Below are positions 6,742 through 25,853 of a DNA stretch of 64,000 nt, in pieces. Numbering within the stretch: the stretch's first letter is position 1; every line of letters starts with the position of its first letter. Below the pieces are notes generated by a model that worked only from the letters and a program-made list of their open reading frames with translations, ran no database searches and was not told where the DNA came from. Position numbers and translations under genes: made by a program. The stretch comes from Gemmatales bacterium. GTDB lineage: Bacteria > Planctomycetota > Planctomycetia > Gemmatales > Gemmataceae. Where the stretch lies: assembly GCA_026004675.1 (NCBI GenBank), contig BPJP01000002.1, forward strand, positions 653,335 to 717,334, written 5' to 3'.

Positions 6742-6897
6742 GGTGCAGCTTTCTCAATTGTCGAGTCAACGGTCCCAAATACAAAGCATGGCTGGATGTA
6801 TTTCCTCCACGCGCAGTGGAGCAATGGCTGGTCTCTGCTTCGGTCGGGGAGGGCTCGTCTGGTGGCGGATACCGTTGTCGGCGTGTTACCGCCCGGT

Positions 6898-8109
6898 TCA
6901 GTCTTGAAAAACGGCGTCCACCTTTTGGCCAGGACGAAGCCGTTCATTCCCTTGGACGACGACGACGTCGTTGTCGCTAAGTTCGCCTTTGACTTCGATC
7001 CAGTCTTCGTGGGCGAGACCCAGCTCGACGGGAACCCTGCGAGCGATGCCTTGCTTGACGACGAAGACAAGGTGGCGGCTGCCGCCAAGAACCAAAGCGT
7101 CTTTCGGAACGAAGTAGGCTTCTTTGTCCAGTTCACCAACAGGGAGGGTCACGCGGGCGAACATGCCGGCTTTCAATAGTACGTTCTTCTTGCCCAGTTT
7201 CTTGTTTTTCAAGCGTATTTTGACCGGAAAAGTGCGGGAGCGCAGGTCGCCTTTGGGAACGATCAGTTGGATGGTGCCTGTAAAGGTTCGATCAGGCAGT
7301 GCCCCCACATCGACGCGAACGGTTTGCCCTTCGCGCAGAAAGCCGACGTAATCCTCGAGCACGCCGACTTGAACATCGACTTCGGCCAGCTCCGCGATCT
7401 CCACGACGGGGTCACCGGGTTTGAGCCACTGGCCGACTTCGGTGAATTCGGCGGTGATGTAGCCGTCGAACGGCGCGCGAATCGTGTGCCTTTCGAGTTG
7501 TTCTTCGAGTCGATCCAAAAGCGCTTGTTGCGAAGCGACGCGCGCCTTGGCCTGTGCGATGCGTTGTTGTCTTGGTCCTTGCAGAATCTTGAGAGCGGCT
7601 TTCGCTTCTTCCAGATTGGCCTGGGCCTGTTCGGCGAGCGACGCCGATTCTTCGAGATCCTCTCTGCTGACGCCCCGGCCAACAAGCGTCTGGTTGCGTT
7701 GGCGTTTGGCTTTAGCGAAGCGCAAGGCCGCCTCGGCTAATGCCAGCCGAGCTTTGGCCTGTTCGATTTCCACAGGCAGCGAAGATACCAGTTCCTTCAA
7801 TTCCACTTGGCGCAAATCCAAATCCGCCCGTGCCGCCGCAACGTCTGCCTCGATAAGCTGTTGGCGTAATTTCGCGATGGGCTGGCCAGCACGCACATAA
7901 TCTCCTTCGTTGACAAGGAATTCGGCCACCCGACCATCAACGGCGCTGCCTACGGTGCTGACTCGAACCGGCATGATCGTGCCGACGAACGATTGGCTGG
8001 AAGCCGCCTTCATTTTTCGAACGCGCATCGTCACGACGCGGGCCGCTTCTTGCGCCGTGAGGACCGGCACGAACCATGCGACCAAGGCAACAGTCAGCAG
8101 CCGATTCAT
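6898..8109 (-). CDS. RND efflux periplasmic adaptor (membrane fusion protein, HlyD family)
   Basis: 403 aa protein with signal/anchor sequence, long coiled-coil hairpin (AEAALRFAKAKRQRNQ…), beta-barrel and lipoyl-like motifs. Lies immediately upstream of the RND pump on the same strand. Confidence 0.85.
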   Translation of the reverse strand: MNRLLTVALVAWFVPVLTAQEAARVVTMRVRKMKAASSQSFVGTIMPVRVSTVGSAVDGRVAEFLVNEGDYVRAGQPIAKLRQQLIEADVAAARADLDLRQVELKELVSSLPVEIEQAKARLALAEAALRFAKAKRQRNQTLVGRGVSREDLEESASLAEQAQANLEEAKAALKILQGPRQQRIAQAKARVASQQALLDRLEEQLERHTIRAPFDGYITAEFTEVGQWLKPGDPVVEIAELAEVDVQVGVLEDYVGFLREGQTVRVDVGALPDRTFTGTIQLIVPKGDLRSRTFPVKIRLKNKKLGKKNVLLKAGMFARVTLPVGELDKEAYFVPKDALVLGGSRHLVFVVKQGIARRVPVELGLAHEDWIEVKGELSDNDVVVVQGNERLRPGQKVDAVFQD

Positions 8110-8564
8110 GAAACGGTCTCCTCGACAATCGATTTGGTTTTCAGGTTTTCTTGAATTCTGGCGAGCACTCTTTTGACGACAGCCAGTTCGTCCTCATTCA
8201 AATCACGAACGGCACGGGCCCGGACTCGGCGGGCGCAACGCGTGATCTTCTTCCACACCGGCTGGACCTGAGGCGTCGGAGAAATCCGTTTCTTTCGCCG
8301 GTCCATTCTCGACGTTTGCCGCCTGATCCAGCCATTTCTCTCCATGCGGTCGAGAATTCCCACCAGTGTCGGCGCTTCGACTCGCATGCGATCGGCCAAC
8401 TCGGACTGCGTCAAGTCCCCTTCCAATGCCAGCCAACCCAACACCTGACATTGGCGGTACGTAATGCCGTGCTGCGCCAATTCGTCGTTCATGGCGCGTT
8501 CGAACATCCGTGCGGTCATCATGACCCAAAAGCCAATGCTTTCTTCGAAATCGTATTCCAGCAC
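8106..8564 (-). CDS. MarR-family transcriptional regulator
   Basis: 152 aa winged-helix protein (…QCQVLGWLALEGDLTQSELADRMRVEAPTLVGILDRMERNGWIRR…). Its stop overlaps the start of the adaptor gene, so the three genes form an operon. Confidence 0.85.
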   Translation of the reverse strand: MLEYDFEESIGFWVMMTARMFERAMNDELAQHGITYRQCQVLGWLALEGDLTQSELADRMRVEAPTLVGILDRMERNGWIRRQTSRMDRRKKRISPTPQVQPVWKKITRCARRVRARAVRDLNEDELAVVKRVLARIQENLKTKSIVEETVS

Positions 8565-11840: not shown

Positions 11841-13544
11841 TCAGCGCACCATGCCTGCAGGCGAGGGAACGGTAAGCTGTTGGCGAATCGTCTCGGCGAA
11901 ATCGGGATCGCCGATCAAGCAGGGATGCTTGTATTGTTCCGGCGTGCCTCCGGAGCGCAGCAAGCGTTCGTGATCCCATTTGGCCCAGGTGCCCGGCTTG
12001 AGCCATTCGATGCGCACCGGCCCGAGGCGTTCGCTATGGCGCTTGCTTTCATACTCGATGTTGGCCCGGCACAGATAGCGGTCGAGCGCCTCCGCCAAAC
12101 GGCGGCCTTGTTCTGGAGCAAGGCCATCTTGCTCTTCGATAAACAACCCATAATAGGGCTGGTCATCATTCCAGCAAGGGGCCAGGCTGTAGGTCGTAAA
12201 CTCCAGATTCATTTCCTGCTGCGTGGCGCTCATCGCCCGTGTGACGTGGTATTCCGACAGTTTTTCGCCGGTGATGTTGGCAAAGAGCGACCCCTTGCTG
12301 AGGAACTCGACGAGAGGTGTTCGGTTGTAGAAGCCGGTGACTTGGACAACATCATAGATATTGTAACGATACAGTCCGAAGGCGGTCGTTGGCAGGATGA
12401 AATAGCGTTCTCCTTCTTTGACCTCGTGGGCTTCGAGAACGGTCGGTTGGGCTTGATTGATTTCGTTTTCGGGAACGAATTCGAAAAAGTGGCTGGTGAT
12501 ATCGAGAACGCCACTGGGGGAGAAATCGCTGAAGGGGATGGACATTCGGCCTTCGCTGGCGATCAAGCCGACATCTCGTACGGGGTTGTCGCCGAAGTAA
12601 CGGGGAAACTGGCGGAGGTAGTTGCCCACGCTGCCTCCGGTCCAGCAGCCCAACAGGCAATCGTTCCAGTAATGTCGGGGATAGAGATGGCCGTGCCGGT
12701 CGGCGAGCCGTTCCAATTGCCGGGCGCGGTCCGGGTGGCGTTTCAGTCGGCGCTGGATTTGTTCGCGGACACTGGGTGGCATGTCAAAGCGTTGGCTCAG
12801 GGTGCCGTCGTGGATGTCGCGAATCAGCGACTCCTTTTCGCTGTCGCCGGCGCGGGCGAGATTGACGAGCGTGCTGGGATTGGCCGCCACGATGACGCCA
12901 ACGTCTTTGGGCATTCCCAGCCGCAACACCGCATAATACTTGGCGGCTGGGTCTTTGATTTGGGCCACTGCAGGCGGTACGCAGTAGAGCCAACGGATGA
13001 TGCGTTTCTGCATCTTCGCTGTCAGTCCGGTTACGCTGCCGCAGGGAATTCCCGCCTCGGTGCGAAATTCATCGCAATCGCTCGACATTTGTACGATTGG
13101 CCTCAGCCGGACACTCTGATGGGCCCGGTAAGCACGCAGACCCCAGATGTTCCAGGCGCGTCGATAGTCGGCCAGGTATTGTGAGGTAACGGGAATGAAC
13201 TTGCGTGCCGAAGTCGTACCGCTGGTCAAGGCGAACATCTTTACCGGGTCAGCCAAAAGAGCGGAGGTATTCCCAGCGCGAACGCGAGCGATGTAAGGCT
13301 CGAAGTACTCATAACCGGCAATTGGCAGGTGCCGACGGAAATCCTCGACCGATCCGATCGCTCGAAAATGATGTTGGCGTCCGAAATCGGTATCCGCATG
13401 GTGGGCGAGGATGCGTCTGAGCAGCGCCTGCTGAATTTCTCGCGGGCGATGTGTGGCGGCTTCAAAAGCGTTGATGTGACGGAGTACCGGCCGCCGGACA
13501 ACCCGGCCAATGAGAAAGAGAAACCAGCGTGGGAGAATCATCAC
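11841..13544 (-). CDS. GH3 family (auxin-responsive promoter / acyl-acid amido synthetase-like) adenylating enzyme
   Basis: 567 aa. N-terminal region typical of GH3 (…FALTSGTTSARKFIPVT…YEYFEPYIARV…). Adenylate-forming superfamily architecture. Confidence 0.75.
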   Translation of the reverse strand: MMILPRWFLFLIGRVVRRPVLRHINAFEAATHRPREIQQALLRRILAHHADTDFGRQHHFRAIGSVEDFRRHLPIAGYEYFEPYIARVRAGNTSALLADPVKMFALTSGTTSARKFIPVTSQYLADYRRAWNIWGLRAYRAHQSVRLRPIVQMSSDCDEFRTEAGIPCGSVTGLTAKMQKRIIRWLYCVPPAVAQIKDPAAKYYAVLRLGMPKDVGVIVAANPSTLVNLARAGDSEKESLIRDIHDGTLSQRFDMPPSVREQIQRRLKRHPDRARQLERLADRHGHLYPRHYWNDCLLGCWTGGSVGNYLRQFPRYFGDNPVRDVGLIASEGRMSIPFSDFSPSGVLDITSHFFEFVPENEINQAQPTVLEAHEVKEGERYFILPTTAFGLYRYNIYDVVQVTGFYNRTPLVEFLSKGSLFANITGEKLSEYHVTRAMSATQQEMNLEFTTYSLAPCWNDDQPYYGLFIEEQDGLAPEQGRRLAEALDRYLCRANIEYESKRHSERLGPVRIEWLKPGTWAKWDHERLLRSGGTPEQYKHPCLIGDPDFAETIRQQLTVPSPAGMVR

Positions 13545-13553
13545 GGCCTCCGA

Positions 13554-14663
13554 CTAGGAAGACGAGGAACCTCGGCTCACGGCCAGCGTCTGTTGGGGCG
13601 AACCGTTGGCTGAGCCGGCTGTCTGAGCATAGCCGTTGAGTGCTGCTGGGTTGCTGGCAAGATGCTCGCGAAAGAACTCGATGACGCGACGGTGGTATTC
13701 GTCACCGGCGACATGAACCGAAGTATTGTGCTTGGCCCCTTCAACAAGCCAGAATTCTTTCGGCGGTTTCGCCGCTTCAAAAAGCGCTTGTCCGATCTGG
13801 GGAGCGATGTAGTTGTCGGCCGCCCCGTGAATCATCAACAGCGGCCTGGGTGACAAGCTTCCCATGACGGGTTTCAGGTCGACGTAGTGCCAGTCCTTGC
13901 CCCGGTTTCGGTAGTCGCGTTCGAGGCAGCGGCGACCGGCTTGCTCGTAAAACCAGGACGGCAAGATGCGTTGCAGCCAGCGTCGTTGGCTGTAAATGGC
14001 GATCCATTTTCGCATGAAGGGAACGACTACGGTAAAGGTATCGAAAACGCCATCGGTCACGAAGCAGCGAACGTACGGGTTCGATGCCGACGCCAAAAGG
14101 CCGGCCGCGGCTCCTTTGCTGACACCGAAGAAACCGATCCCCGTCGGCTCCGCGTCGGGGCGGGTTCTCAAGTATTCGATTGCCGACTCCGCATCGATCA
14201 CGTCGTATTTGGTCACCCAGTGCAAAGGCTCATAGCCAGGCATCGATTCGCTGTCACCCTGGTTGCGGAACTCGAAAGCGAAAACGTCGAAGCCAGCATC
14301 CACGAGTTTTTCACAGAAAGGGACGCATGTCCAGCGAGAGGCGCCGTAGGGTACGCCGAAGAGAATCACGCCGAGTCTTCGGGATGCGGGCGTGCGCAGG
14401 TAACAGCCACATAGCTGGTAGCCATCGCTGCTATGGAAGTAGACGTTTTCGGCGCTTTCGAGTGGTTGGCCGCGTGGAATAATGAAAATCGGCTTTTCTT
14501 CAAAGCCGCGAACCAGGTGCTTGCCATAGCGACTGATAAGATAATCCTGAAAGAGACGATTCCCAGTCCAGACTGCGCCGCTGAGGCAGACGATTCCCAC
14601 TATAGCGTACCACAACCATTCCAAGGTGCAACTCCCAAGACGGATTAAGGTCGGTCCAATCAC
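13554..14663 (-). CDS. alpha/beta hydrolase (thioesterase/peptidase-like) with N-terminal TM anchor
   Basis: GxSxG nucleophile elbow GVSKGA. Downstream Asp and His candidates (…IHGAADNY…, …GAKHNTSVH). N-terminal hydrophobic helix. Confidence 0.7.
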   Translation of the reverse strand: MIGPTLIRLGSCTLEWLWYAIVGIVCLSGAVWTGNRLFQDYLISRYGKHLVRGFEEKPIFIIPRGQPLESAENVYFHSSDGYQLCGCYLRTPASRRLGVILFGVPYGASRWTCVPFCEKLVDAGFDVFAFEFRNQGDSESMPGYEPLHWVTKYDVIDAESAIEYLRTRPDAEPTGIGFFGVSKGAAAGLLASASNPYVRCFVTDGVFDTFTVVVPFMRKWIAIYSQRRWLQRILPSWFYEQAGRRCLERDYRNRGKDWHYVDLKPVMGSLSPRPLLMIHGAADNYIAPQIGQALFEAAKPPKEFWLVEGAKHNTSVHVAGDEYHRRVIEFFREHLASNPAALNGYAQTAGSANGSPQQTLAVSRGSSSS

Positions 14664-15952
14664 ACATCGAATTTGCGGACAACGAGCGAAATGTTCTGCC
14701 CGCCAAAACCGAAGCTATTGCTCAAGGCGCAACGCACCGTTTTTTCCCGAGCGGCGTTCGGAATGTAATCCAAATCGCATTCGGGATCGGGCGTTTCGTA
14801 ATTCATCGTTGGCGGCATGACGCCTTTCTGGATGGTCATGACGCAGGTAATCAATTCTACAGCCCCGGCGGCAGCGATCAAATGTCCGAGCATGCTCTTG
14901 CTGCTGCTGACAGGAACCTGATACGCTGCATCGCCGAAAACCTGTTTAATCGCTATCGTCTCTACTTTGTCATTCACCTGCGTGCTCGTTCCGTGGGCGT
15001 TGATGTAATCGACGTCGGTCGGCTGGATACCGGCGTCCTGGAGAGCGGCGCGGATGCAAGCCGCCGCCCCGCGCCCTTCGGGATGGCTGTCCGTAATGCG
15101 GAAGGCGTCCGCCGTCGAACCGTAGCCGATTATCTCCGCATAGATATGAGCTCCGCGCTTCTTGGCATGCTCCAATTCTTCCAGGACGAGCATTCCAGAA
15201 CCTTCGCCAAGCACGAAACCATCGCGATGCAAGTCGAAAGGACGCGATGCCTTCGAAGGCGGATCATTGCTGGTGGACAAAGCCGTCAACAAATTGAACC
15301 CGGTCACCCCGAGTGGATGGATCATGCTGTGCGAGCCGCCGCTGAGCATAATGTCCGCATCGCCATGGCGAATCATCTCCGTCGCTTCACCGATCGCCTG
15401 GCTGCTGGCGGCACAGGCCGTCAGGCAATTGAAATTCGGTCCCTCGAGGTCAAAATAAGCCGCCAAGTGGGCGGCCGAGGTGTGCAGCTCTTGTTCGGCT
15501 TCACGGCCTGGATGAAAGTAGCGCAATGCACCGCTGGTAAACCCAGCCGTGTCGACGAGCCGACTATCGGCATCGTAGTTGAAAGCAATCAGAGAGACGA
15601 GATTATGAAAGTCCTGAATCCCTTCGCCGCAACCAAGATAGACACCGATCCGAGTGCGATCCACTTTCGTATTGTCGAGCAAATCGGCATCTTCAAGTGC
15701 TTGTTTCGCTGCGGCGGCGGCAAACTGGCTGTTGACTCCGGAATCGACCCACCGTTGAGGCTCTTTGACGAAACGCGACAGATCGAAGTTTTTGACTTCG
15801 GCGGCAATCTGTGTCGGAAAGCGTTGGGCATTGAAAAGGGAGATGCGACCGATTCCACTGCGCCCTTCGATCTGAGCGGCGTAGAGTTCCTCGACGCTGT
15901 GTCCGAGCGGTGTGATCGCTCCCATTCCGGTAATTACGACTCGCCTTCGCAT
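14660..15952 (-). CDS. beta-ketoacyl-ACP synthase (KAS I/II, FabF-like)
   Basis: Active-site Cys motif TACAASSQAIG, His motifs (INAHGTSTQ), C-terminal SNSFGFGGQNISLVV. Probable start at MRRRVVITGMG, which is Met 22 of the ORF in the track. Confidence 0.85.
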   Translation of the reverse strand: MRRRVVITGMGAITPLGHSVEELYAAQIEGRSGIGRISLFNAQRFPTQIAAEVKNFDLSRFVKEPQRWVDSGVNSQFAAAAAKQALEDADLLDNTKVDRTRIGVYLGCGEGIQDFHNLVSLIAFNYDADSRLVDTAGFTSGALRYFHPGREAEQELHTSAAHLAAYFDLEGPNFNCLTACAASSQAIGEATEMIRHGDADIMLSGGSHSMIHPLGVTGFNLLTALSTSNDPPSKASRPFDLHRDGFVLGEGSGMLVLEELEHAKKRGAHIYAEIIGYGSTADAFRITDSHPEGRGAAACIRAALQDAGIQPTDVDYINAHGTSTQVNDKVETIAIKQVFGDAAYQVPVSSSKSMLGHLIAAAGAVELITCVMTIQKGVMPPTMNYETPDPECDLDYIPNAAREKTVRCALSNSFGFGGQNISLVVRKFDV

Positions 15953-15983: not shown

Positions 15984-17264
15984 TTACTCCCAGCGGCGGA
16001 CAACAATCGCGGCACACTGTCCCATATCAGTGAAGTTGAGCTTCAAAACATACGGTTTCGTCGCGGGCACTGGGTCCCCAGCGATCACCGCGAGCGGGCA
16101 ATTCGCATCCCGGTTTTCAAAGTTTTTCGTAGCCGGTACCAGACCATGATGCAGCGCTAACACGCTGGCGGCTAATTCCGTTGTGCCCGCCGCCGCGCCC
16201 AAATTGCCCAACAAGCTCTTGGCAGCAAATACTTTTACCGGCGGGTCCCTATCGCCGAAGACTTCATTGATGCCCTTCGCTTCCCAGGCGTCGACATCGA
16301 CGGCGCTTAAACCGTGAGCATTGATGTGATCGACATCTTCCGGTTCGATGCCGGCGTCCCTCAAGGCATTGCGAATGGCTCGTGCAATCCCCGCACCCGA
16401 TCGCTGGCGGTCGAAAGCCGATCCGAAACCGACCACTTCCGCGTAAATGCGGGCCCCTCTCTTTTGGGCGTGTTCCAGGGTCTCCATGACGAGGACGGTG
16501 GCACCTTCGGAGATGACCATGCCATCGCGATCGCGGTCGAAGGGACGACTAGCCAGTTCGGGTTCGTCGTTTCGTCGCGACAAAGGCTGAAACAGGCACT
16601 GTCTGGAAAAACTCAACGGATTCAATCGACTTTCCCCGCCGCCAACCAGGAAGAAATCAGCCTGGCCTCGGACAAGTATGCGGTAGGCTTCGCCGATTGC
16701 TAGCGTACTGCCGACATCGCTTTCGGTAATCGTGTTGCTTGGTCCCTGGGCGTTATGGAGGATCGACACATGGCAGGCGAGCATGTTGGGAAGGTATTTC
16801 AACATCCACAACGGCGTGATATTGGGCAAACCTTCCGCTCCCCATTTTTCCAGGTCGATGGAACCGGGCTGGCAATTGGCGCTCACCCGCGCCGCTTCTC
16901 CCAGCTCTTCCAGTTCGCTGGCGATCAAGCCGGCGCCGAACTCAACGCCGAAGCGCGTCGGATCGAGCTGGGTTTTGTCCACGTTCCCATCGTTGAGTGC
17001 CAGTTGGGCGGCGGCGACCGATAGCTGGATGCTCCGCGCCATAACGCGCAGGCTTTTGCGTTCCTTCTTGTCGATGTAGTTTTTGGCGTCAAAACCGTGC
17101 ACTTCGCCCGCAATGCGCACTGGCAGGCTTTTCGCGTCAAAGGCGGTTATCGGACCGACTCCGCTGCGGCAATGCACTAGCGCGTCCCAGAAGGCGTTGG
17201 CGTCCAGCCCGAGGGGCGTGAGAGCGCCAATTCCAGTTAGAACAACTCGTCGTGAATCCGCCAT
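15984..17264 (-). CDS. ketosynthase paralog lacking the catalytic cysteine (chain-length-factor-like partner)
   Basis: Full KAS fold (…VVLTGIGALTPLG…HINAHGLS…). At the position equivalent to GPNFNCLTACAASS in the neighbouring KS it reads GPSNTITESDVGST, so Cys is replaced by Asp. Probable start at MADSRRVVLTG. Confidence 0.75.
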   Translation of the reverse strand: MADSRRVVLTGIGALTPLGLDANAFWDALVHCRSGVGPITAFDAKSLPVRIAGEVHGFDAKNYIDKKERKSLRVMARSIQLSVAAAQLALNDGNVDKTQLDPTRFGVEFGAGLIASELEELGEAARVSANCQPGSIDLEKWGAEGLPNITPLWMLKYLPNMLACHVSILHNAQGPSNTITESDVGSTLAIGEAYRILVRGQADFFLVGGGESRLNPLSFSRQCLFQPLSRRNDEPELASRPFDRDRDGMVISEGATVLVMETLEHAQKRGARIYAEVVGFGSAFDRQRSGAGIARAIRNALRDAGIEPEDVDHINAHGLSAVDVDAWEAKGINEVFGDRDPPVKVFAAKSLLGNLGAAAGTTELAASVLALHHGLVPATKNFENRDANCPLAVIAGDPVPATKPYVLKLNFTDMGQCAAIVVRRWE

Positions 17265-17373
17265 GGCCCACCTGTGCAAAAACAGCGAACGGCACTGCGT
17301 CTATCCGAAGGCAGACACGTGTTGCCGTGCCATTCTCACGGCCTGGTACAATGCCTATTATAGTGGCAACTCC

Positions 17374-17880
17374 TTAACCGTCCGGTTGTTTGGCCGCCGC
17401 CTGCGCCAAACCCAGCAAGTGCTTGAGCTCCCCAGAGAAAACAAAGTTGTGGTCGCCAAAGATCCTTTGCGATCGCGAGCGATCCAGATGAGCGAAAAAA
17501 ATCTCCGCCTCGGCGATGAGGTCCGTATCGCTGTAAACCCGGCCGGCGACAGACGCTCCTTCCGGCCGAAGATGCAGCAGATCGACCTCGTAGCGCAACT
17601 GTTCGCCAGCGGTCGCTTCGCGCCGGAATCGAGCGAACGTGATTTTAGCCAACACGACTTTTTCCTGAAAGTTGTTGGCTTCACCGACCAGGATGCCGCC
17701 CGTCTGGGCTAACCCTTCCAGGATCAACGACGCGGGCATGACTGGATAGCCGGGAAAATGTTCGGCGAAGTAATCCTCAGCGAGACTGAGGTTCTTTATT
17801 GCCGTCGCCCGCTTGCCACTTTCAAATTCCAAAAAACGGTCTATCCAGATCCATCGCATAGGGCCTCTGTAGTCTGGCAC
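17374..17880 (-). CDS. 3-hydroxyacyl-ACP dehydratase (FabA/FabZ hot-dog fold)
   Basis: Hot-dog motif …AEHFPGYPVMPASLILEGLAQTGGIL… 168 aa. Confidence 0.8.
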   Translation of the reverse strand: MPDYRGPMRWIWIDRFLEFESGKRATAIKNLSLAEDYFAEHFPGYPVMPASLILEGLAQTGGILVGEANNFQEKVVLAKITFARFRREATAGEQLRYEVDLLHLRPEGASVAGRVYSDTDLIAEAEIFFAHLDRSRSQRIFGDHNFVFSGELKHLLGLAQAAAKQPDG

Positions 17881-18010: not shown

Positions 18011-18412
18011 CTAATTCTTGCTCGGTTCGCTCAGCTTGCCTTCGATGTAACGGGTGATCATTTCGACGGTAAACAGATTGCTGATATTGCTGACCTCCGG
18101 ATTTTCTTCAAATTTGGACAAGTCAGCGAAAGGCATGCGCTGCCTGAGTTCGGCGATCCCCTTTTCCGTGACTTTTCCATCCTGAACGAATTCGGGGTCG
18201 CCTTGAAAGATCGACTCGGGGAACAGTTCGTTACGGGGAATCTTGATGCCGAATTCCCTTTCCAACCGAAAAACGATGTCGAGAAAATCGATCGATTCCG
18301 CCCCGAGGTCGCCCTGGAGAGTCGACGTAGGTTTGATTTCATCTTCGTCCACATTCAGGGCTTCTACCAACGTCGCGGAGACCTTTGAGTAGATTTCATC
18401 ACGGCTCGACAT
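18011..18412 (-). CDS. acyl carrier protein with a long internal insertion/extension
   Basis: Phosphopantetheine-attachment motif DLGAESIDFLDIVFRLE (Ser in a DSL-like context). 133 aa against about 78 aa for canonical AcpP. Confidence 0.75.
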   Translation of the reverse strand: MSSRDEIYSKVSATLVEALNVDEDEIKPTSTLQGDLGAESIDFLDIVFRLEREFGIKIPRNELFPESIFQGDPEFVQDGKVTEKGIAELRQRMPFADLSKFEENPEVSNISNLFTVEMITRYIEGKLSEPSKN

Positions 18413-18541: not shown

Positions 18542-19301
18542 TTATCCGGCGACCGCACCCAGGCTAAGCCCGCCATCCACCGTGATGACCTGCCCTGTGA
18601 TATAACCACTTTCCTCACTGGCAAGAAACACGGCGACGCGGGCGATGTCTTCTGGTTTTCCGAGCCGGCGCATGGGGATCATCTTTTTGATGATGTCCCC
18701 AGCTTTGTTTCGCACGGCTTCACTCATATCGGTCTCGATGAAGCCCGGGGCGATGGCATTCACGGTGACGTTTCGGCTGGCGAGTTCCACTGCCAAAGCA
18801 CGCGTCAAGGCGTTGATCGCGCCTTTGCTGGCCGCGTAATTGGTTTGCCCCGGGTTCACGTGTTCCGCCGCTACACTAGAAATATTGATGATTCGGCCAC
18901 GCCGCTGTTTCATCAGCGGATAGGCTACCGCTCGACAAAAGTTATAGGTACCCTCCGAGGTTGGTTTGCAACACCTTGGACCACGCCTCAGGCTCGAGGC
19001 GGATGAACAAGTCGTCATGTATGATCCCGGCATTGTTCACCAGAATGTCCAGCCGTTGCCATTCGTTCTGCACGCGTTCAACACAGTTTTGGGCGAAGTC
19101 GGCGTCGCAAACATCACCTTGCAAGGCCAGAATCGTGCCGCCATTCGACTGGACTTCCTGAACGAGTGCGTCCGCTGCTTCTTTGCTGCCTCGATAGACA
19201 AAGGCGACCCTGGCGCCTTCTCGGGCGAAGCGTTCGACGATCGCCCGTCCAATTCCACGGCTGCCACCCGTCACCAAAGCGACCTGGTCCTTCAACAACA
19301 T
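18542..19301 (-). pseudogene. 3-oxoacyl-ACP reductase (FabG-like SDR) split by an apparent frameshift (pseudogene or sequencing error)
   Basis: N-terminal half in ORF 18942..19301 (TGGSRGIGRAI…NNAGI). C-terminal half in ORF 18542..19033 (…RIINISSVAAEHVNPGQTNYAASKGAI…, YxxxK, PGFIETDM). The two frames overlap at about 18940-18960, consistent with a 1-nt indel. Confidence 0.65.
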
Positions 19302-19305
19302 ATCC

Positions 19306-19800
19306 CTACGACCCTATGCCCACGGGATTCGCTGACGTCAAAAACGCATACACGTCGCGCAGATGGTCGATGAGGCGCTGATCGACCGAAGCGCATTCAG
19401 GGCGAGTATCTTTCAAGTTATATTGAAACAACACCAGGCGAGCAGAAACGGTGGTTTGTCCGCCGACTTCGCCCTTCCCTTTCAGCGTCGCCAGGCCGCT
19501 TTCTTCTTGAGCGAGCAGGTCGACAGTGATGTGCATCTGCCGACCGGGTTCCATGAATGTGCCGTATTTAACGTTCTTCGCCTCGCGCAATACGACGAGG
19601 CTATGGCGAAAATCGTTGGTGACCCGCAGCAGCCAGCTTCCCGCCTCCACGAGTGTCTGCAACATGAGCACGCCCGGCATCACTGGAAAGGTCGGGAAAT
19701 GATCCGCCAAATACTCTTCCCCAAGTGTCAAATTCTTGACCGCCTGAACAGACTTTCCCGCCGTCATGGCGGTAATCCGATCCAGGAGGTTGAATCGCAT
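19306..19800 (-). CDS. second FabA/FabZ-like hot-dog dehydratase
   Basis: …ADHFPTFPVMPGVLMLQTLVEAGSWL… 164 aa. Confidence 0.8.
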   Translation of the reverse strand: MRFNLLDRITAMTAGKSVQAVKNLTLGEEYLADHFPTFPVMPGVLMLQTLVEAGSWLLRVTNDFRHSLVVLREAKNVKYGTFMEPGRQMHITVDLLAQEESGLATLKGKGEVGGQTTVSARLVLFQYNLKDTRPECASVDQRLIDHLRDVYAFLTSANPVGIGS

Positions 19801-20204
19801 AAGAAGAATCCTTGTTTAGGTGCCGCCAGAACTCCAACGTAAGACTACCAAGCCTCGCAAAAGCGGCAAGTATATAAGAAGCCTTCTAAACCGGCAACCT
19901 CGAACGGCTGTCACCCGCGCCACTTGTCTCTGTTGCCCAGTTTTGCAGCAGCCAAAAGAGTGCCATAGTTTTGCCGATTTGGCAATGTAGGAAAGCAAAT
20001 TTGGCCGTGTAAACTGCGGAAGACCAGACTAGCGCTGGCAATTGAAGCGAATTTGACGGCTCTTCAGCCTTTGCGTGACTGCTTTACGTGCGTGCGTCAA
20101 ATCCAGCTTGGTTCTTGAAAACCCACACAATCCCATATCATTAACATTGTGCCGATCGTAACGGTTCTTAACAGGAAAGCGGCATCCTCGCCAGAGGGAG
20201 AATC

Positions 20205-20759
20205 ATGCCCATTGACGAGAAAGACATTAAATGGGTGCAAGAACCCCGAATGGGATTCAAAGAACAACTCTATTTGCCGGCCATTCTGGAAGGGGTCAAG
20301 ACCACGATGAGGCACATGTTCGGCCCGAAGGTTACGGTCGAATATCCCGAACAGGAGCCAAATATCCCGCCGAATTATCGAGGCGTACACCGTCTGAATC
20401 GAGATGAACAGGGTCGTGTCCGCTGTGTCGCTTGTTACATGTGCGCAACGGCTTGCCCGGCTCATTGCATTGATATCGTTGCCGCCGAATCCCCCTGGCC
20501 CGACCGCGAAAAATACCCTGAGACATTTGTCATTGACGAACTGCGCTGTATTTATTGTGGCATGTGCGAGGAAGCCTGCCCGGTTGATGCCATCGAGTTG
20601 ACATCGCTTTATGACTTAACGGGGCTGAGCCGCGAAGAAATGATGTTCGACAAGGAAAAATTGCTTAGCGTCTTTGACTATACCTTGAAAACAGGCAAGG
20701 ATCCGGTTCGAACCAAGGCTGGTCGGCTTGGTCCGGCGTCCGATTTGCCGGACTCCTAG
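20205..20759 (+). CDS. nuoI: NADH-quinone oxidoreductase subunit I (2x[4Fe-4S] ferredoxin)
   Basis: Two CxxCxxCxxxCP motifs (CVACYMCATACPAHC, CIYCGMCEEACPVDA). RBS GGAG at 20188-20191. Confidence 0.85.
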   Translation: MPIDEKDIKWVQEPRMGFKEQLYLPAILEGVKTTMRHMFGPKVTVEYPEQEPNIPPNYRGVHRLNRDEQGRVRCVACYMCATACPAHCIDIVAAESPWPDREKYPETFVIDELRCIYCGMCEEACPVDAIELTSLYDLTGLSREEMMFDKEKLLSVFDYTLKTGKDPVRTKAGRLGPASDLPDS

Positions 20760-20810
20760 CCAATACTAACCACCATTCCGATCGTTGACGCGACAGGAAA
20801 CGCCAACAAC

Positions 20811-21875
20811 ATGGTAGCAGGGCAAACGACAACCGTGTCCGGACCGCCTGGGTTTCTGCCGGTGTTACTTCCCATTGGGCTGGGACTGGTCGGCGTCTAC
20901 TACTTGTTGCCAAAGCCCAAAGGTTATCCTCTGTGGGCAGGAGTCGTTTGTTCGGCAGCTGCCATCATCAGCGCTGGCGCGCTTCTGGTCCGCTACGATG
21001 TCCTTACGCCGGAGGTCCTCCTCTTTCTGACATTTTCGGCTTTGGCGATTATTTCCGGCGGCCTGCTGATCACGCTACGCAACCCAGTCCGGGCTGCCTT
21101 GTCGTTTGCGCTGGTAATTCTTAGTACGTGCGGCCTGTTTCTTTTGCAAGCCGCACCGTTTCTGACGGCAGCCACCATCATCGTCTATGCTGGGGCGATC
21201 ATTGTCACGTTCCTTTTTGTCATCATGTTGGCGCAGCAAGAAGGACTCTCAGATGCAGATCGGCGGTCGCGTGAACCGATGCTCTCAGCGGTTGCCGGAT
21301 TCGTCCTGCTGGCAGCCTTGTTGTACGTACTGGTCTTGAACTATGACACACGCCGCCTGGACCAGATCCTTGCGGAAATCCGCCTGGCGCAGCAAAAAGA
21401 GACCGTCGCCGAGATCGAAAAGGTCCTGGGCGATGAAATCGAAGATGGCTTTTCCAAAAAGCTGGAAACCATTTCCATCGCGCCGGAAGGATCGGATCGG
21501 CCTTTGCCCTTGATGGAGCGGATCAACACCAACGATTTTATGTTCGATTTGGAATGGATGCGTGCCAAGGCGATGGGTGTGGCAGAGATGAAAAAAGTGC
21601 TCGGCGAGTTGGCGGCGCGGATTGAGCGGATCCGAAATATGCAGGGACAATTGCAACCGGCGAAGGAAAGGCCCTTGAGTTCGTTCAGCGGTCGGCCGGC
21701 TAATCAGCAGGCAAGCTCTGGTGCCGGTCGAAAAGAGTCGATTGACACAGTGGCACTTCTTGGTCGATCTCTTGTGACCGATTATCTGTTTTCTGTCGAG
21801 CTAGCCGGTGTTTTGCTGCTGGTGGCAGTTGTGGGTGCCATCGTCATCGCAGGTCGGCAGGAGGGGATGCCATGA
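20811..21875 (+). CDS. nuoJ: NADH-quinone oxidoreductase subunit J with a large hydrophilic insertion
   Basis: Hydrophobic N-terminal helices, a C-terminal TM (ELAGVLLLVAVVGAIVIAGRQEG) and conserved operon position between nuoI and nuoK. 354 aa against the typical about 170-200 aa. Confidence 0.7.
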   Translation: MVAGQTTTVSGPPGFLPVLLPIGLGLVGVYYLLPKPKGYPLWAGVVCSAAAIISAGALLVRYDVLTPEVLLFLTFSALAIISGGLLITLRNPVRAALSFALVILSTCGLFLLQAAPFLTAATIIVYAGAIIVTFLFVIMLAQQEGLSDADRRSREPMLSAVAGFVLLAALLYVLVLNYDTRRLDQILAEIRLAQQKETVAEIEKVLGDEIEDGFSKKLETISIAPEGSDRPLPLMERINTNDFMFDLEWMRAKAMGVAEMKKVLGELAARIERIRNMQGQLQPAKERPLSSFSGRPANQQASSGAGRKESIDTVALLGRSLVTDYLFSVELAGVLLLVAVVGAIVIAGRQEGMP

Positions 21876-22291
21876 ATCCCGTTGCTGCCCTCAATAACTA
21901 CTTGATGGTCGGTGCCGTCTTGTTCGCGTTAGGCGTGATCGGATTCTTGTCGCGGCGCAATTTGATCATCATGTTTTTGTCGGCGGAAATGATGCTGCAG
22001 GGAGTGGCCCTCAACATGGTGGCCTTCGCCCGATATCGGGGAAACGTGCAAGGACAGGCGTTTGTCTTGTTCATGCTCACCGTCGCCGCTTGCGAGGCGG
22101 CCATCGCCCTTTCGTTGTTCATGGTGCTATACCGGCATCGGCATACGCTCGATGTCAGTGTCTGGCAGGAATTGCGCGAAGCGGATCAGGATCCGATCGT
22201 GGATGACGAGCCGTTGCCACCACTGGAACCGGAAGAACCTTTGCCTCATTTGACTCCTGCTGGGCGTGAGCCGGAACATGCACCCAGTTGA
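21872..22291 (+). CDS. nuoK: NADH-quinone oxidoreductase subunit K with acidic C-terminal extension
   Basis: Three-TM core (…FLSAEMMLQGVALNMVAF…CEAAIALSLFMVLYR). Start overlaps the nuoJ stop. Confidence 0.8.
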   Translation: MNPVAALNNYLMVGAVLFALGVIGFLSRRNLIIMFLSAEMMLQGVALNMVAFARYRGNVQGQAFVLFMLTVAACEAAIALSLFMVLYRHRHTLDVSVWQELREADQDPIVDDEPLPPLEPEEPLPHLTPAGREPEHAPS

Positions 22292-22340
22292 AAGCGATAG
22301 CCAGGTCGCTGCCCGAACTGCGAGGAAGTGTTAAACAGCC

Positions 22341-24272
22341 ATGGCCGATTACTTGTGGCTCATTCCGTGCCTGCCCCTCTTGGCGAGCATCGTAATCGCC
22401 TTTGCAGGGCCGCGCTGGCTTCGCGGCCAAAGCCATTGGCCGTGTCTTCTTGCCGTCGCCGCCGCCTGCTTTTTGTCGATGCTGGTCGCGGGGGAAATCA
22501 TTTCCCAGGAGCAAGGTGACGCCACCCTGAAGACCTACTATTCGTGGGTTCAAAGTGGCAAACTTGATGTGGGAATGACATTACGTGCTGATGCCCTGTC
22601 GGCCATTATGCTCGTCACAGTCACCTTTGTTGGCACATTGATTGCGATCTATTCCGCCGGTTACATGCATGGCGATCCGGGATATCCGCGGTTTTTTGCT
22701 TGCGTAGCTTTGTTTATCTTTTGCATGACCGGCCTGGTGATGGCCGACAATTTCGTTCTGCTCTACGCCGGCTGGGAAGGGGTCGGCGTATGCAGCTACC
22801 TGCTGATCGGTTTCTGGTTTCAAAGGCCATCGGCTGCGGCCGCCGCCCGCAAGGCATTTCTAGTCAACCGGATCGGTGACTTCGGCTTCATGCTGGGCAT
22901 ATTGCTCTTGTGGTCGCAGTTCGGGTTCCGCCTTGATTATCAGAGTGTTTTTGACCGAGCCGATACGCTGGCGGGAACGTCCACATTGACAGCTATTTGC
23001 CTGCTGTTGTTCTGTGGCGCCGTGGGAAAATCCGCTCAGTTTCCCTTGCATGTGTGGTTGGCCGACGCCATGGAAGGCCCCTCTCCAGTAAGTGCCCTGA
23101 TCCACGCTGCGACCATGGTCACCGCAGGCGTCTATATGGTCGCACGTTGCATGCCGCTCTATCAATTGGCGCCTGATGCACTTCTCGCTGTCGCCGGAAT
23201 TGGCGCCTTCACAGCCATGCTGGCGGCCCTGATCGCTTTGACGCAAACCGACCTGAAGCGGGTTCTGGCCTATTCGACCATGAGTCAGCTGGGCTATATG
23301 TTTCTGGCATTAGGCAGTGCCGCTCATCCCACGATTACCTACGCTGCTGTCCTGGCGGCGATCTTCCACCTGTTCACCCATGCCTTTTTCAAAGCTCTCT
23401 TGTTCCTTGCCGCAGGTAGCGTCATGCACGCGATGGGCGACGTCATCGACATGCGTCGCTTCAGCGGCTTGCGCCGTCTCTTGCCAACGACGCATTGGAC
23501 ATTCCTCATGGGTGCCTTGGCGCTCTCCGGATTCCCGCTCTGGTCAGGATTTTGGAGCAAAGACGAAATCTTGGGCGTCGCTCTGGAAGCGTCCAAAAAG
23601 GGAGTGTTTCCGACCTATTACATGATCTTTTTCATGGCTGGCGTCATCACTGCGGCTTTGACCGCATTTTATACTTTTCGCGCCTATTTTTTGACGTTCT
23701 GGGGCGAAGAACGCATCCCCCCCGAGGCTGGCGAACATGCCCACGAATCCCCTCCGATCATGACTGTGCCGTTAGTGATCCTTGCGGTTTTAGCAGCTGG
23801 CATCGGTTTGGTGGCACAACCATTGACCGGCTGGTTCGGCGACCTGCTGGCAAAAACTCCCGGCCTTCACGAGCATCCGCATCATGCCAACATAATCGTG
23901 ATGTTGGGCAGCAGTTTGTTCGCCATCGCCGGTATCGCCCTGGCCTATTGGATGTATGTCAAGGAACCGAAAACCGCCGACGAGCTGGCAGACAGTGTTC
24001 CCGGTCTCTACGATGCGTCGCGGAACAAATTCTATCTGGATGAAGCATATTACAACGGGATTGTTCGGCCTGCCCATGCTACGTCGGTTGTTTGCCGAAT
24101 CTTCGACTTGTACATTCTCGATGGTTTGATCGATCTTTTGGCCCATGGAGCGCGCTGGCTGGGTCAACTTTTTCGCCCCATCCAAAACGGCCTGGTCCAG
24201 TTTTACGCCCTGGCCATGGTGTTGGGGCTGGGAGTTTTCCTGATTTCGCTGGTTTGGGCTTTGGGAGGTTGA
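22341..24272 (+). CDS. nuoL: NADH-quinone oxidoreductase subunit L
   Basis: LHVWLADAMEGPSPVSALIHAATMVTAGVYM motif. 643 aa antiporter-like subunit with C-terminal lateral helix region. Confidence 0.9.
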   Translation: MADYLWLIPCLPLLASIVIAFAGPRWLRGQSHWPCLLAVAAACFLSMLVAGEIISQEQGDATLKTYYSWVQSGKLDVGMTLRADALSAIMLVTVTFVGTLIAIYSAGYMHGDPGYPRFFACVALFIFCMTGLVMADNFVLLYAGWEGVGVCSYLLIGFWFQRPSAAAAARKAFLVNRIGDFGFMLGILLLWSQFGFRLDYQSVFDRADTLAGTSTLTAICLLLFCGAVGKSAQFPLHVWLADAMEGPSPVSALIHAATMVTAGVYMVARCMPLYQLAPDALLAVAGIGAFTAMLAALIALTQTDLKRVLAYSTMSQLGYMFLALGSAAHPTITYAAVLAAIFHLFTHAFFKALLFLAAGSVMHAMGDVIDMRRFSGLRRLLPTTHWTFLMGALALSGFPLWSGFWSKDEILGVALEASKKGVFPTYYMIFFMAGVITAALTAFYTFRAYFLTFWGEERIPPEAGEHAHESPPIMTVPLVILAVLAAGIGLVAQPLTGWFGDLLAKTPGLHEHPHHANIIVMLGSSLFAIAGIALAYWMYVKEPKTADELADSVPGLYDASRNKFYLDEAYYNGIVRPAHATSVVCRIFDLYILDGLIDLLAHGARWLGQLFRPIQNGLVQFYALAMVLGLGVFLISLVWALGG

Positions 24273-24278
24273 TGCTCC

Positions 24279-25853
24279 GTGCCAAACCCCATCATCGATG
24301 CGCTGAAAAACATTTATCCGCTCGCGGTCCCCGAGATCGCGCTCATCGCGCTAGCGTGTCTTCTCTATTTGGCAGGTACCTGGCGACGCGACCGGGATTT
24401 GTGGGGAACGGTGGCCCTCGTCGCTCTGGCTTCGGTTGGCGTCGTTTTGTGGTACACCGTTCCGACTCGACCGCCGACTGCAGCTGAGGTTTATGCCGCG
24501 CCGATCATCCTTGATCGTCTAGCTTTGCTGACCAAGGTCATCACCCTGATTGGCGGCGCTATCCTTGTCATTTTCACGTGGTACGACATCTCCGATAAAC
24601 TCGCTGCGGAATTCTACGGCTGTATGCTGTTGATCCTTGCCGGTATCGGTTTGACGGCGATGTCCAACGATCTTATCGCTCTGTTTCTCTCGCTCGAATT
24701 GATCAGCATCCCGACGTACGTCATGCTTTACATCCCACGGCGAGATGATCTGGGAAGGGAGGCTGCCACGAAGTATTTTCTGCTGAGTGTGTTTTCTTCC
24801 GGAATCCTTTTGTTCGGTTTCAGCTATCTTTATGGCATCGCGGGCAGCACCAATCTCTCCGCCATCATGGACGCCCTTCGCTCGACGCAAGGGGTCGATT
24901 TACCGGTTCTTGTCCTTGTCGCGCTGGTGATGGTGGTTGCCGGTCTCGGGTTCAAGATCACAGCGGTTCCGTTTCATTTCTATGCTCCCGATGTCTACCA
25001 GGGAACGACGGCATCGATGGCAGCGCTTCTCGCATTTTTGCCCAAGGTTGCGGGCTTTGTCGCTCTGGCCAGGGTTCTGGGGTTCGTCGTGCCCGCTGGG
25101 CCGGCTGCCATCGCCTTCGGCCCACATTTGCCCAAACTGCTTTGGATTGTCGCCGCAGTGACCATGACACTTGGCAACGTTCTGGCTCTTTTGCAAACCA
25201 ACTTGAAGCGGCTGCTAGCCTATTCCAGCATTGCCCACGCCGGCTACATGCTCATGGGATTGACCGTTGCTCAAAGTCTGGAAGCAACAAATTCGAACGT
25301 TCCCGGGGGAGTTGAGGCGATCATGTTTTACTTGGTGGCGTACGGCGGGATGACCATCGGCGCTTTTGCCGTTTTCTCTTACCTGAGCACGCCCGAGCGC
25401 GAAGTCGAAATGGAAGACGATCTTGCGGGACTCGGTGTCAGCCATCCGGGCGTCGCCCTTTTGATGACTTTGTTCTTGTTCAGCCTGATCGGCGTGCCGC
25501 TGACGGCAGGTTTCGTGGGTAAAATGATGCTGTTTTTTGGAGCTCTGTCAGGCAAAGGCGACAGCGGCGTACTCTTTCGCTGGCTGGCAGCGATTATGGC
25601 CGTCAATGCCGCCATTGGCGCGTGGTACTACCTGCGGATCATTGCCAAGATGTACTTGCATCGGCCCGTCAAGCCGTTGCCGAAAACGAAAGCCCTCCCC
25701 AAATTAATGACACTCTGGTCGTGTGCTCTCGTGACCCTTGTCTTTGGCATTTATCCCAAGCCTCTGGTTGATCTGGCAGCCCGAACGACGCCGAGATTAG
25801 CAAGCAACCAATCGGTCGCCAAAGCGTCCCCGCACACTGCAATAAACCCATAG
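24279..25853 (+). CDS. nuoN: NADH-quinone oxidoreductase subunit N (antiporter-like)
   Basis: FHFYAPDVYQGTTASMAALLAF motif is characteristic of NuoN rather than NuoM. Start lies 7 nt after the nuoL stop. Confidence 0.7.
   Translation: MPNPIIDALKNIYPLAVPEIALIALACLLYLAGTWRRDRDLWGTVALVALASVGVVLWYTVPTRPPTAAEVYAAPIILDRLALLTKVITLIGGAILVIFTWYDISDKLAAEFYGCMLLILAGIGLTAMSNDLIALFLSLELISIPTYVMLYIPRRDDLGREAATKYFLLSVFSSGILLFGFSYLYGIAGSTNLSAIMDALRSTQGVDLPVLVLVALVMVVAGLGFKITAVPFHFYAPDVYQGTTASMAALLAFLPKVAGFVALARVLGFVVPAGPAAIAFGPHLPKLLWIVAAVTMTLGNVLALLQTNLKRLLAYSSIAHAGYMLMGLTVAQSLEATNSNVPGGVEAIMFYLVAYGGMTIGAFAVFSYLSTPEREVEMEDDLAGLGVSHPGVALLMTLFLFSLIGVPLTAGFVGKMMLFFGALSGKGDSGVLFRWLAAIMAVNAAIGAWYYLRIIAKMYLHRPVKPLPKTKALPKLMTLWSCALVTLVFGIYPKPLVDLAARTTPRLASNQSVAKASPHTAINP

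Follow-up and report, generated by a model that had tools for sequence, protein, structure and literature searches.

A stretch of 64,000 nucleotides from a Gemmatales bacterium (assembly GCA_026004675.1, contig BPJP01000002.1, positions 653,335 to 717,334; hereafter the window) carries side by side on its minus strand two ketosynthase (KS) genes of the FabF type: KS2 (15984-17264), which codes for a full-length FabF-like protein without the nucleophilic cysteine, and KS1 (14660-15952), which codes for a catalytically intact enzyme. The reading that we favor, with a probability of roughly two in three, is that KS2 is a FabF-derived pseudo-enzyme that resembles the chain-length factors (CLFs) of type II polyketide synthases (PKSs) and most likely acts as the obligate heterodimer partner of the adjacent KS1. 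Pairs made of an active KS and a dead paralogue set the length or shape of acyl chains in type II PKSs and, according to work from 2026, in the ladderane machinery of anammox bacteria. KS2 would represent a second, sequence-distinct planctomycete lineage of such partners, i.e., a known design in an uncharacterized lineage.

The KS2 frame spans 426 amino acids (aa) from an ATG at 17264, with an alternative TTG at 17279. At the nucleophile elbow, where the catalytic Cys belongs, it has Asp183 (codon GAT, 16716-16718, minus strand), and three alignments and a structural model agree on this placement. The BLASTP alignment of KS2 with KS1 (38% identity, E 1e-84) has no gaps across the elbow and sets ESDVGST under TACAASS, with Asp beneath Cys, whereas phmmer aligns the stretch ...NTITESDVGS... 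with ...STVVTACATG... of the Thermus thermophilus FabF (1j3n), again with Asp under Cys. Asp183 also falls under the nucleophilic Cys in a MAFFT alignment with 112 representative homologues, in which an E. coli FabF sequence serves as a numbering ruler only. In the AlphaFold2 model of KS2 (mean predicted local distance difference test score, pLDDT, 87.3; predicted template-modeling score, pTM, 0.88), Asp183 sits at the nucleophile elbow, in the turn that leads from strand 176-179 to helix 185-198. The original prediction, that the Cys position of a second KS paralogue holds Asp, is thus borne out: both strings that it quoted are found in the translations (EGPNFNCLTACAASSQAIGEA in KS1 and QGPSNTITESDVGSTLAIGEA in KS2), and its own reservation about a shifted alignment is not upheld, as the alignments to FabF and to the partner leave no Cys at the elbow. 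The Cys-less gene had also been described as lying downstream of the intact one; it lies upstream (5′) of KS1, because both genes are on the minus strand.

An alignment shift by which a Cys would come to lie at the elbow was rejected, C164 standing 19 residues upstream and C417 234 residues downstream of it. Cys164 (16767-16775 region, minus strand) belongs to the interface helix motif ..NMLACH and is the majority residue in distant relatives too. Cys417 (16014-16016, minus strand) lies just past the degenerate gate loop and is conserved in the aligned Gemmatales orthologues, not in the wider clade.

The changes in KS2 extend to other catalytic positions. At the equivalents of FabF C163/H303/K335/H340/F400, the protein reads D-H-K-N-D: His317 and Lys349 are retained, Asn354 (codon AAT, 16203-16205, minus strand) takes the place of the second catalytic His (FabF His340), and the GFGG gate has become TDMG, with Asp413 as the equivalent of Phe400. 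The residue set of a catalytic FabF (Cys-His-His, Lys335, and the GFGG gate) is therefore broken in a protein that has the full-length, two-half thiolase fold of ketoacyl synthase II (KAS II) enzymes, contains both Pfam ketoacyl-synthase domains and finds FabF structures as its top Foldseek matches (TM-score 0.84-0.85). On the NCBIfam fabF equivalog model (TIGR03150, cut-off 493.75 bits), KS2 scores 352.9 bits, below the cut-off, and KS1 passes with 501.8 bits. KS1, 430 aa from an ATG at 15952 (alternative GTG at 16015), keeps Cys180 (15413-15415), His320, and His357 in the pattern Cys-His-Lys-His-Phe. Together, the two are the sole ketosynthase genes within the window.

Scanning a single genome for each species turned up more than 560 stretches with genes for relatives of KS2, the best 80 of which were examined for synteny. 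Almost all of these 80 are labeled Gemmatales/Gemmataceae or plain Planctomycetota, and they include Limnoglobus roseus, Gemmata algarum, Fimbriiglobus, Zavarzinella, and Urbifossiella. The gene order DH1-KR-ACP-DH2-KS2-KS1-hydrolase-GH3, where DH stands for dehydratase, KR for ketoreductase and ACP for acyl carrier protein, is kept in nearly all of them, and the adjacency and order of KS2 and KS1 in essentially all. Among 79 Gemmatales KS2 orthologues, the nucleophile position is Asp in 69 and Glu in 10, and Cys in none. The remainder of the active site drifts: the first His (H303 equivalent) is retained in 53 of the 79 and the Lys (K335 equivalent) in 64, the second His (H340 equivalent) survives in only 5 and is replaced by Asn in 59, the gate Phe has become Asp, Gln, or Glu, and GFGG reads T-D/Q/E-x-G. 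The C/H/K/H/F pattern of KS1 is invariant (66/66 orthologues). Mean pairwise identity within the same genomes is 54% for KS2 and 66% for KS1, so that KS2 evolves faster overall. An acidic position that is kept while the catalytic residues of KS2 decay and KS1 stays invariant therefore argues for a non-catalytic partner under structural selection.

These conservation data effectively refute the idea that KS2 is a decaying pseudogene, or its Asp a sequencing or assembly artifact of this metagenome-assembled genome, to which we attach a negligible probability. The one-base frameshift in the KR gene of the same assembly could be taken to favor such an explanation, but the 426-aa frame of KS2 is intact, the family shows 61 invariant columns in an alignment of 47 sequences, its relatives recur across the genome stretches with an acidic elbow in 79/79, and the protein yields a model with a pTM of 0.88. 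Moreover, a single read error does not explain Asp183, because going from TGT to GAT takes two base changes.

The same residue counts bear on a second alternative, which we regard as distinctly improbable, namely that KS2 is a malonyl-ACP decarboxylase, either stand-alone or as a subunit-resident “chain initiation factor” like the KS-Q loading domains, and makes an acetyl-ACP primer for KS1. Here the Asp carboxylate would mimic the acyl-enzyme and the His/Asn pair would catalyze decarboxylation. His-Asn is the decarboxylation pair of FabH-type condensing enzymes, the KS2 of the window and the modal orthologue both keep His317, Lys349, and Asn at the second-His position, and the anammox heterodimer decarboxylates malonyl-ACP, though that activity is assigned to its intact subunit. 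However, the residues that such chemistry needs are lost again and again (of the 79 orthologues, 26 are without the first His, 15 without the Lys, and 20 without the Asn), whereas KS1 keeps all of them; the gate loop is altered as well, and neither anammox subunit decarboxylates by itself.

Beyond the Gemmatales, the 112 full-length representatives are those most similar to KS2 in a library of 1.8 billion proteins, a sample biased towards KS2 relatives. The elbow residue is Asp/Glu in 64 of them, Cys in 20, and another residue in 28 (Gln in 2), so that the acidic type is, within this KS2-biased sample, a large family. Asp/Glu-type proteins were observed, some operon-encoded and some orphan, in Gemmatales, Planctomycetales, and Sedimentisphaerales, and their source names are just “3-oxoacyl-ACP synthase II” or “family protein.” A neighbor-joining tree (no bootstrap) places the Asp/Glu-type proteins in one clade and the Cys-bearing operon partners in another, separate from housekeeping FabF, and this split of KS2 and KS1 into clades of their own resembles that of KS-alpha and KS-beta. 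Neither a paper nor a solved structure covering the Asp/Glu-type clade turned up in the literature and PDB searched. Single polypeptides of 730-880 aa in which an intact KS (C-H-K-H) is fused to a degenerate KS, in either order, were also encountered (P0130, P0144, P0169, P0185, P0205, P0216, P0219, P0229, P0265).

KS2 surpasses KS1 in conservation in two stretches only, the blocks 141-160 (0.77 vs. 0.54) and 161-180 (0.81 vs. 0.72). Residues 149-166, ITPLWMLKYLPNMLACHV (16767-16820, minus strand), form the second helix in the helix-loop-helix motif at the dimer interface and acyl tunnel, align with FabF ISPFF(I/V)P...NM..(A/G)H, and carry the family signature. The interface helix motif of KS2 is PLWMLKYLPNMLACH, and P151, L155, L158, and N160 are invariant even in Asp/Glu-type relatives at 36-47% identity. 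The lineage is recognizable by its strictly acidic elbow residue together with PLWxLKYLPNM, a motif that no PDB chain was found to share in a search with the elbow segment. The preceding residues 111-148 (16821-16934, minus strand) include about 13 extra residues relative to FabF and are gapped against 1j3n, and the only low-confidence part of the monomer model (pLDDT 45-53) extends over roughly residues 111-160. Net charges, calculated on sequence segments, are +0.94 for the second helix of KS2 and -2.61 for that of KS1. The summed charge of the second helix and the next interface segment is more positive for KS2 than for the KS1 of the same genome in 66/66 cases; the first helix is negative in both proteins.

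In the scheme that we propose, KS1 would perform the decarboxylative condensations on the 133-aa ACP of the operon, and KS2, deprived of a nucleophile, would supply the partner half of the dimer, notably the helix-loop-helix of residues 111-166 with the motif PLWMLKYLPNMLACH. In FabF-type dimers, this segment covers and lines the acyl tunnel of the partner, and KS2 would in this way set the chain lengths and shapes that KS1 accepts. The elbow carboxylate probably either fills and stabilizes the vacant oxyanion-hole/helix-dipole site at the helix N-terminus or repels acyl- and malonyl-ACP from the defunct entrance; such a structural or electrostatic role is favored over a catalytic one. Together with the KR and the two hotdog dehydratases (DH2 clearly active, DH1 divergent), KS1 and KS2 would build a dedicated acyl chain, with a housekeeping enoyl reductase joining in if the chain is saturated rather than polyenic. 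The translationally coupled hydrolase and GH3 would then release the chain and ligate it in an ATP-dependent manner to an amine or amino acid, or O-acylate, and the end product would be an N-acyl amino-acid-type membrane lipid.

Several observations weigh against this scheme. Heterodimer formation and chain-length control are here inferred from sequence, with support for the former that is indirect (conservation of the interface helix and charge complementarity in 66/66 pairs), and the charge asymmetry likewise rests on sequence segments, not on a structure. A purely dead site needs no strictly acidic residue, and the anammox counterpart has Val/Thr at this position; the CLFs of aromatic PKSs have Gln there, from which Asp/Glu differs. 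The modal His-Asn pair of KS2 resembles that of FabH-type enzymes, and residual decarboxylase chemistry is therefore possible in the members that keep it. The KR gene is frameshifted in this assembly. With respect to the product, the GH3 protein of the window scores 105 bits on the NCBIfam model of OlsH, the GH3-family lyso-ornithine-lipid synthetase of planctomycetes (cut-off 620), i.e., it is a distant OlsH relative, and the hydrolase matches no OlsI-type model in the NCBIfam search. Finally, Asp/Glu-type genes without an adjacent KS exist at L085, L086, L090 (Planctellipticum), L093 (“Planctomycetales bacterium 10988”), and L094, so that a KS partner in the operon is not needed for the fold to function or, at the least, to persist. 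L085 and L086/L087 are on other contigs. The L094 orphan comes directly after a fatty-acid desaturase gene, and a further Asp/Glu-type gene (L088) is found two genes past fabD-fabG-acpP-fabF.

Those orphan relatives, in Planctellipticum, in “Planctomycetales bacterium 10988” and on metagenomic contigs, are one ground for supposing that KS2 works independently of KS1, be it as a homodimeric, non-catalytic protein that binds, chaperones, or regulates acyl-ACP or as a partner of the housekeeping FabF, with adjacency reflecting co-regulation only. The anammox protein FabFmut, which is able to form a homodimer in crystals, points the same way. We nevertheless consider this explanation unlikely: the Gemmatales KS2-KS1 pair is adjacent and tightly spaced in essentially all of the best 80 loci, the partner KS1s form a clade of their own apart from housekeeping FabF, and the sequence charges of the interface helix complement those of KS1 in 66/66 pairs.

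The strict acidity of the elbow invites two further readings. According to the first, the carboxylate is no tolerated loss but functionally required, whether it steers ACP traffic, mimics an acyl or malonyl group to lock the partner or performs chemistry of its own, and the operon makes an undescribed N-acyl amino-acid membrane lipid; this combined proposal is doubtful, yet plausible enough to be kept in mind. According to the second, which is very improbable, the carboxylate is a nucleophile or base, and KS2 is a chain-releasing acyl-ACP hydrolase that works through an acyl-Asp anhydride or an activated water and frees the fatty acid for GH3. Indeed, GH3 enzymes such as OlsH take free carboxylic acids, no classical thioesterase domain was detected in the operon, and the acidic residue is the sole strictly conserved active-site position of KS2. 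However, such a mechanism has no precedent in the literature searched or among the PDB matches, the supporting His and Lys drift among orthologues, and the neighboring alpha/beta-hydrolase is a more ordinary candidate for release; moreover, an Asp/Glu swap shifts the carboxylate by a methylene, which would be unusual for a precise nucleophile.

The non-catalytic partner of KS1 thus stays the preferred reading of KS2. That KS2 is a CLF-like, non-condensing partner rather than a second independent condensing enzyme had been proposed in the original prediction, and it is the best supported interpretation, given the missing nucleophile, the drifting triad, the intact KS1 next door, and a pattern of conservation and sequence charge like that of the anammox heterodimer. 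The earlier proposal is partly supported, being right in kind and imprecise on relatives and gene order: KS2 is not a member of the KS-beta clade, and its supposed likeness to ApeC, the inactive partner in aryl polyene (APE) synthesis, is poor, since ApeC is half-size and KS2 full length.

The conserved eight-gene operon that houses the pair runs on the minus strand from 19800 to 11841, in the order DH1, KR, long ACP, DH2, KS2, KS1, alpha/beta-hydrolase, and GH3. DH1 (19306-19800), its first gene, codes for a divergent FabA/FabZ-fold hotdog protein that keeps His34 and has Gln48 at the catalytic-acid position. The KR gene (18542-19301) is FabG-like and has a +1 frameshift at 18951/18952 in this assembly. 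The unusually long ACP (18011-18412; 133 aa) has an ACP domain, with Ser40 in an ESID motif, beyond which its C-terminal extension adds about 55 aa, and DH2 (17374-17880) is a FabZ-like dehydratase with catalytic His41 and Glu55. Between KS2 and KS1, a gap of 31 nt holds an AAGGAG ribosome-binding site. The stop codon of KS1 overlaps the start of the hydrolase gene (GTGA; -4 nt), and 9 nt separate the latter from GH3. The alpha/beta-hydrolase (13554-14663), which is syntenic in most loci, has an N-terminal hydrophobic segment indicative of a membrane anchor and a GVSKG serine motif. GH3 (11841-13544) codes for a GH3-family acyl-acid amido synthetase with all three GH3 Pfam domains and an SGTTS nucleotide motif. 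A Pfam domain search detected no classical thioesterase domain among the operon genes, and the operon encodes no enoyl reductase. A scan for promoters and terminators gave just weak consensus matches upstream of DH1, none of them decisive.

The break in KR splits the gene into two overlapping open reading frames by one extra base in the run GGAGGG, and without one of the Gs the frame reads through as a complete 252-aa KR that has its Ser and YxxxK motif. As the gene is intact in 67/70 related loci, the break is either an assembly error or a very recent pseudogene. The catalytic Glu of DH2 (+14 from His) is present in 68/68 orthologues, and the equivalent position of DH1 (codon 19657-19659), Gln in the window, is Q in 41, E in 21, and H in 2 of its orthologues, which suggests that DH1 and DH2 may constitute a second active/degenerate pair within the operon. 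In related loci, the hotdog proteins carry a Pfam ApeI-like domain, and the ACPs range from 97 to 138 aa with a conserved ESID motif. Far from the operon (54109-54942, plus strand) lies a gene for another short-chain dehydrogenase, which belongs to the enoyl-ACP reductase-like family adh_short_C2 and is 30% identical to KR.

On the upstream side, genes for NADH:quinone oxidoreductase-like subunits (20205-25853, plus strand; a 4Fe-4S NuoI-like protein and two Proton_antipo_M proteins) diverge from the start of the operon, which therefore has its upstream boundary at about 19800-20200. About 3 kb past its 3′ end are genes for an RND transporter of the AcrB type, a membrane-fusion protein of the HlyD type, and a MarR regulator (3343-8564, minus strand), with a Ser/Thr kinase gene and a trypsin-TPR protease gene standing in between. 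A similar trio lies close to the orphan KS-like gene in L094, and a link of these genes to lipid export is possible.

In more distant relatives, the core DH-ACP-DH-KS2-KS1 is retained and the acyl-handling genes are swapped. The core is joined by a hydrolase, GH3, and DUF1571 in L083 (7068-16127) and by a hydrolase, GH3, a B12-radical SAM gene, two methyltransferases, and DUF1571 in L092 (6102-17084). In L091 (6359-11688), it is without GH3 and comes directly after a gene for an LpxL-type lipid A acyltransferase. In L002, L043, L047, L064, L072, and L080, too, GH3 is followed by DUF1571. With its constant make-up and interchangeable acyl-handling genes, the core therefore looks like a module by which membrane lipids are supplied with a special acyl chain.

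Several known systems invite comparison with this operon. The KS-alpha/KS-beta pairs of type II PKSs associate an active KS with an adjacent paralogue that lacks the catalytic residues, in an obligate heterodimer whose inactive subunit shapes the tunnel (PMC12664062). Like the CLF of these systems, KS2 is a KS paralogue without the nucleophilic Cys that is encoded beside an intact KS. The Gln at the Cys position that is typical of aromatic-PKS CLFs and of KS-Q is not found in KS2, the 79 orthologues all having Asp/Glu. In phmmer comparisons, KS2 scores 150 bits against the actinorhodin CLF 1tqy_B and 285 bits against the FabF 1j3n. No CLF is present among the 50 best Foldseek matches of the KS2 model, whose top matches are all FabF, and with the KS2 elbow segment as query, matches to the CLFs 6smo_C, 6kxd_B, and 1tqy_B reach no better than E 0.002-0.01 (0.008 for Iga12, 6kxd_B). 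The far higher FabF score and the FabF-only top folds rule out a place for KS2 in the KS-beta clade of aromatic PKSs. The gene order is reversed as well, the inactive gene coming first in Gemmatales, and the Gemmatales cluster is a reducing one, with KR and DHs, in whose operon genes neither cyclase nor aromatase domains were detected.

The pairs Iga11/Iga12, of ishigamide synthesis, and ApeO/ApeC, of APE synthesis, also combine a KS and an inactive partner with discrete KR, DH, and ACP and with no enoyl reductase in the cluster. Ishigamide is an acyl-amino-acid amide, the kind of product proposed for the Gemmatales operon. APE clusters typically carry aryl-starter, LolA/MMPL-export, and glycosyltransferase genes, which the Gemmatales operon does not have. 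ApeC is about half a KS, i.e., one thiolase half (PMC8358021), whereas KS2, with its 426 aa, comprises both halves. Asp113 of Iga11 lies in the pocket of the active KS and does not stand in for the nucleophile (PMC8358021).

In rhizobia, the module acpXL-fabZXL-fabF2XL-fabF1XL(-adhA2XL-lpxXL) uses an ACP of its own to make a special very-long-chain fatty acid destined for lipid A (PMC11901934). Its core order of ACP, dehydratase, KS, and KS is that of the Gemmatales operon, with a KS-KS spacer of 12 bp as against 31 nt, and just as the rhizobial module includes lpxXL, L091 stands next to an LpxL-type acyltransferase gene. On the NCBIfam models PRK06519 and PRK06501, which we take to be those of the fabF2XL/fabF1XL pair, KS2 scores 76 bits (cut-off 320) and KS1 360 bits (cut-off 629), respectively. 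The rhizobial pair is thus only weakly related by sequence to KS2/KS1, and where the rhizobial module has an acyltransferase at its end, the Gemmatales one has GH3 and a hydrolase. A tblastn search of plasmids with KS2 returned only ordinary FabF at ≤41% identity and did not recover the fabF2XL/fabF1XL pair.

The end of the operon recalls the making of ornithine lipid by the planctomycete Singulisphaera acidiphila, in which the GH3 protein OlsH and the alpha/beta-hydrolase OlsI are encoded in one operon (PMC12493201). OlsH spends ATP to join ornithine with a free fatty acid, and OlsI O-acylates (PMC12493201, PMC12971839). Because such a pair makes ornithine lipid in another planctomycete, the Gemmatales operon is a concrete candidate for an undescribed planctomycete membrane-lipid pathway, and the resemblance of its GH3 and alpha/beta-hydrolase to OlsH/OlsI leads us to suggest, tentatively and at somewhat less than even odds, a related but different N-acyl amino-acid-type lipid as its product. 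The Gemmatales operon has no OlsG methyltransferase between GH3 and the hydrolase, and fatty-acid-synthesis genes are not described beside olsHI (PMC12493201 mentions neither “ketoacyl” nor “acyl carrier”). The 120 matches listed in a homologue search with GH3 are all close orthologues, named hypothetical or GH3 family and in no case OlsH.

Within the Planctomycetota themselves, the anammox FabF homologues amxFabFmut and amxFabF2 belong to ladderane Cluster I (Granatino et al., May 2026 preprint, bioRxiv 10.64898/2026.05.19.726425). In amxFabFmut, whose gene is just upstream of amxFabF2, the Cys is replaced by Val or Thr and both His are lost; the two proteins are inactive singly, co-purify, and form a KS/CLF-like heterodimer (bioRxiv 10.64898/2026.05.19.726425). 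The helix-loop-helix of amxFabFmut (residues 110-140) is disordered in the homodimer and ordered in the heterodimer, and it is positive in amxFabFmut and negative in amxFabF2, which explains the preference for the heterodimer; Phe135 and Val139 of amxFabFmut line the tunnel and alter the chain-length preference (bioRxiv 10.64898/2026.05.19.726425). The anammox pair and KS2/KS1 come from the same phylum, and in both, full-length proteins derived from FabF are encoded with the inactive gene directly upstream of the active one, a dedicated ACP and a FabZ-like dehydratase belong to the cluster, and the nearest structural match of the inactive subunit is an ordinary FabF. The second helix of KS2/KS1 agrees, in its sequence charge, with the anammox polarity of inactive positive and active negative, the first helix being negative in both proteins, and the helix-loop-helix that is disordered in the amxFabFmut homodimer corresponds to the low-confidence segment of the KS2 monomer model. 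A B12-radical SAM gene is found both in anammox Cluster I and in L092, which is related to the Gemmatales module.

The two pairs also differ. Val/Thr and the loss of both His in amxFabFmut stand against a strictly acidic residue and a first His that is usually kept in KS2, and downstream of the pair are GH3 and an alpha/beta-hydrolase in Gemmatales but phytoene-desaturase-like and radical SAM genes in the anammox cluster. The PDB entries 9s5h/9s5i are presumably the amxFabFmut/amxFabF2 structures, a link that is our assumption, a search for the code 9S5H having found nothing. KS2 scores 172 bits against 9s5h_C (the presumed amxFabFmut) and 285 bits against the FabF 1j3n in phmmer, and its 81-aa elbow/interface segment gives no match to 9s5h_C at E ≤ 0.01; with so low a similarity, KS2 and amxFabFmut would not be orthologues. 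The anammox pair has been studied experimentally, whereas the Gemmatales pair is known from sequence only. Taken side by side, the Gln of aromatic-PKS CLFs, the Val/Thr of the anammox protein, and the Asp/Glu of KS2 and its relatives amount to a natural experiment on the role of the residue at the dead nucleophile site in KS/CLF-type heterodimers.

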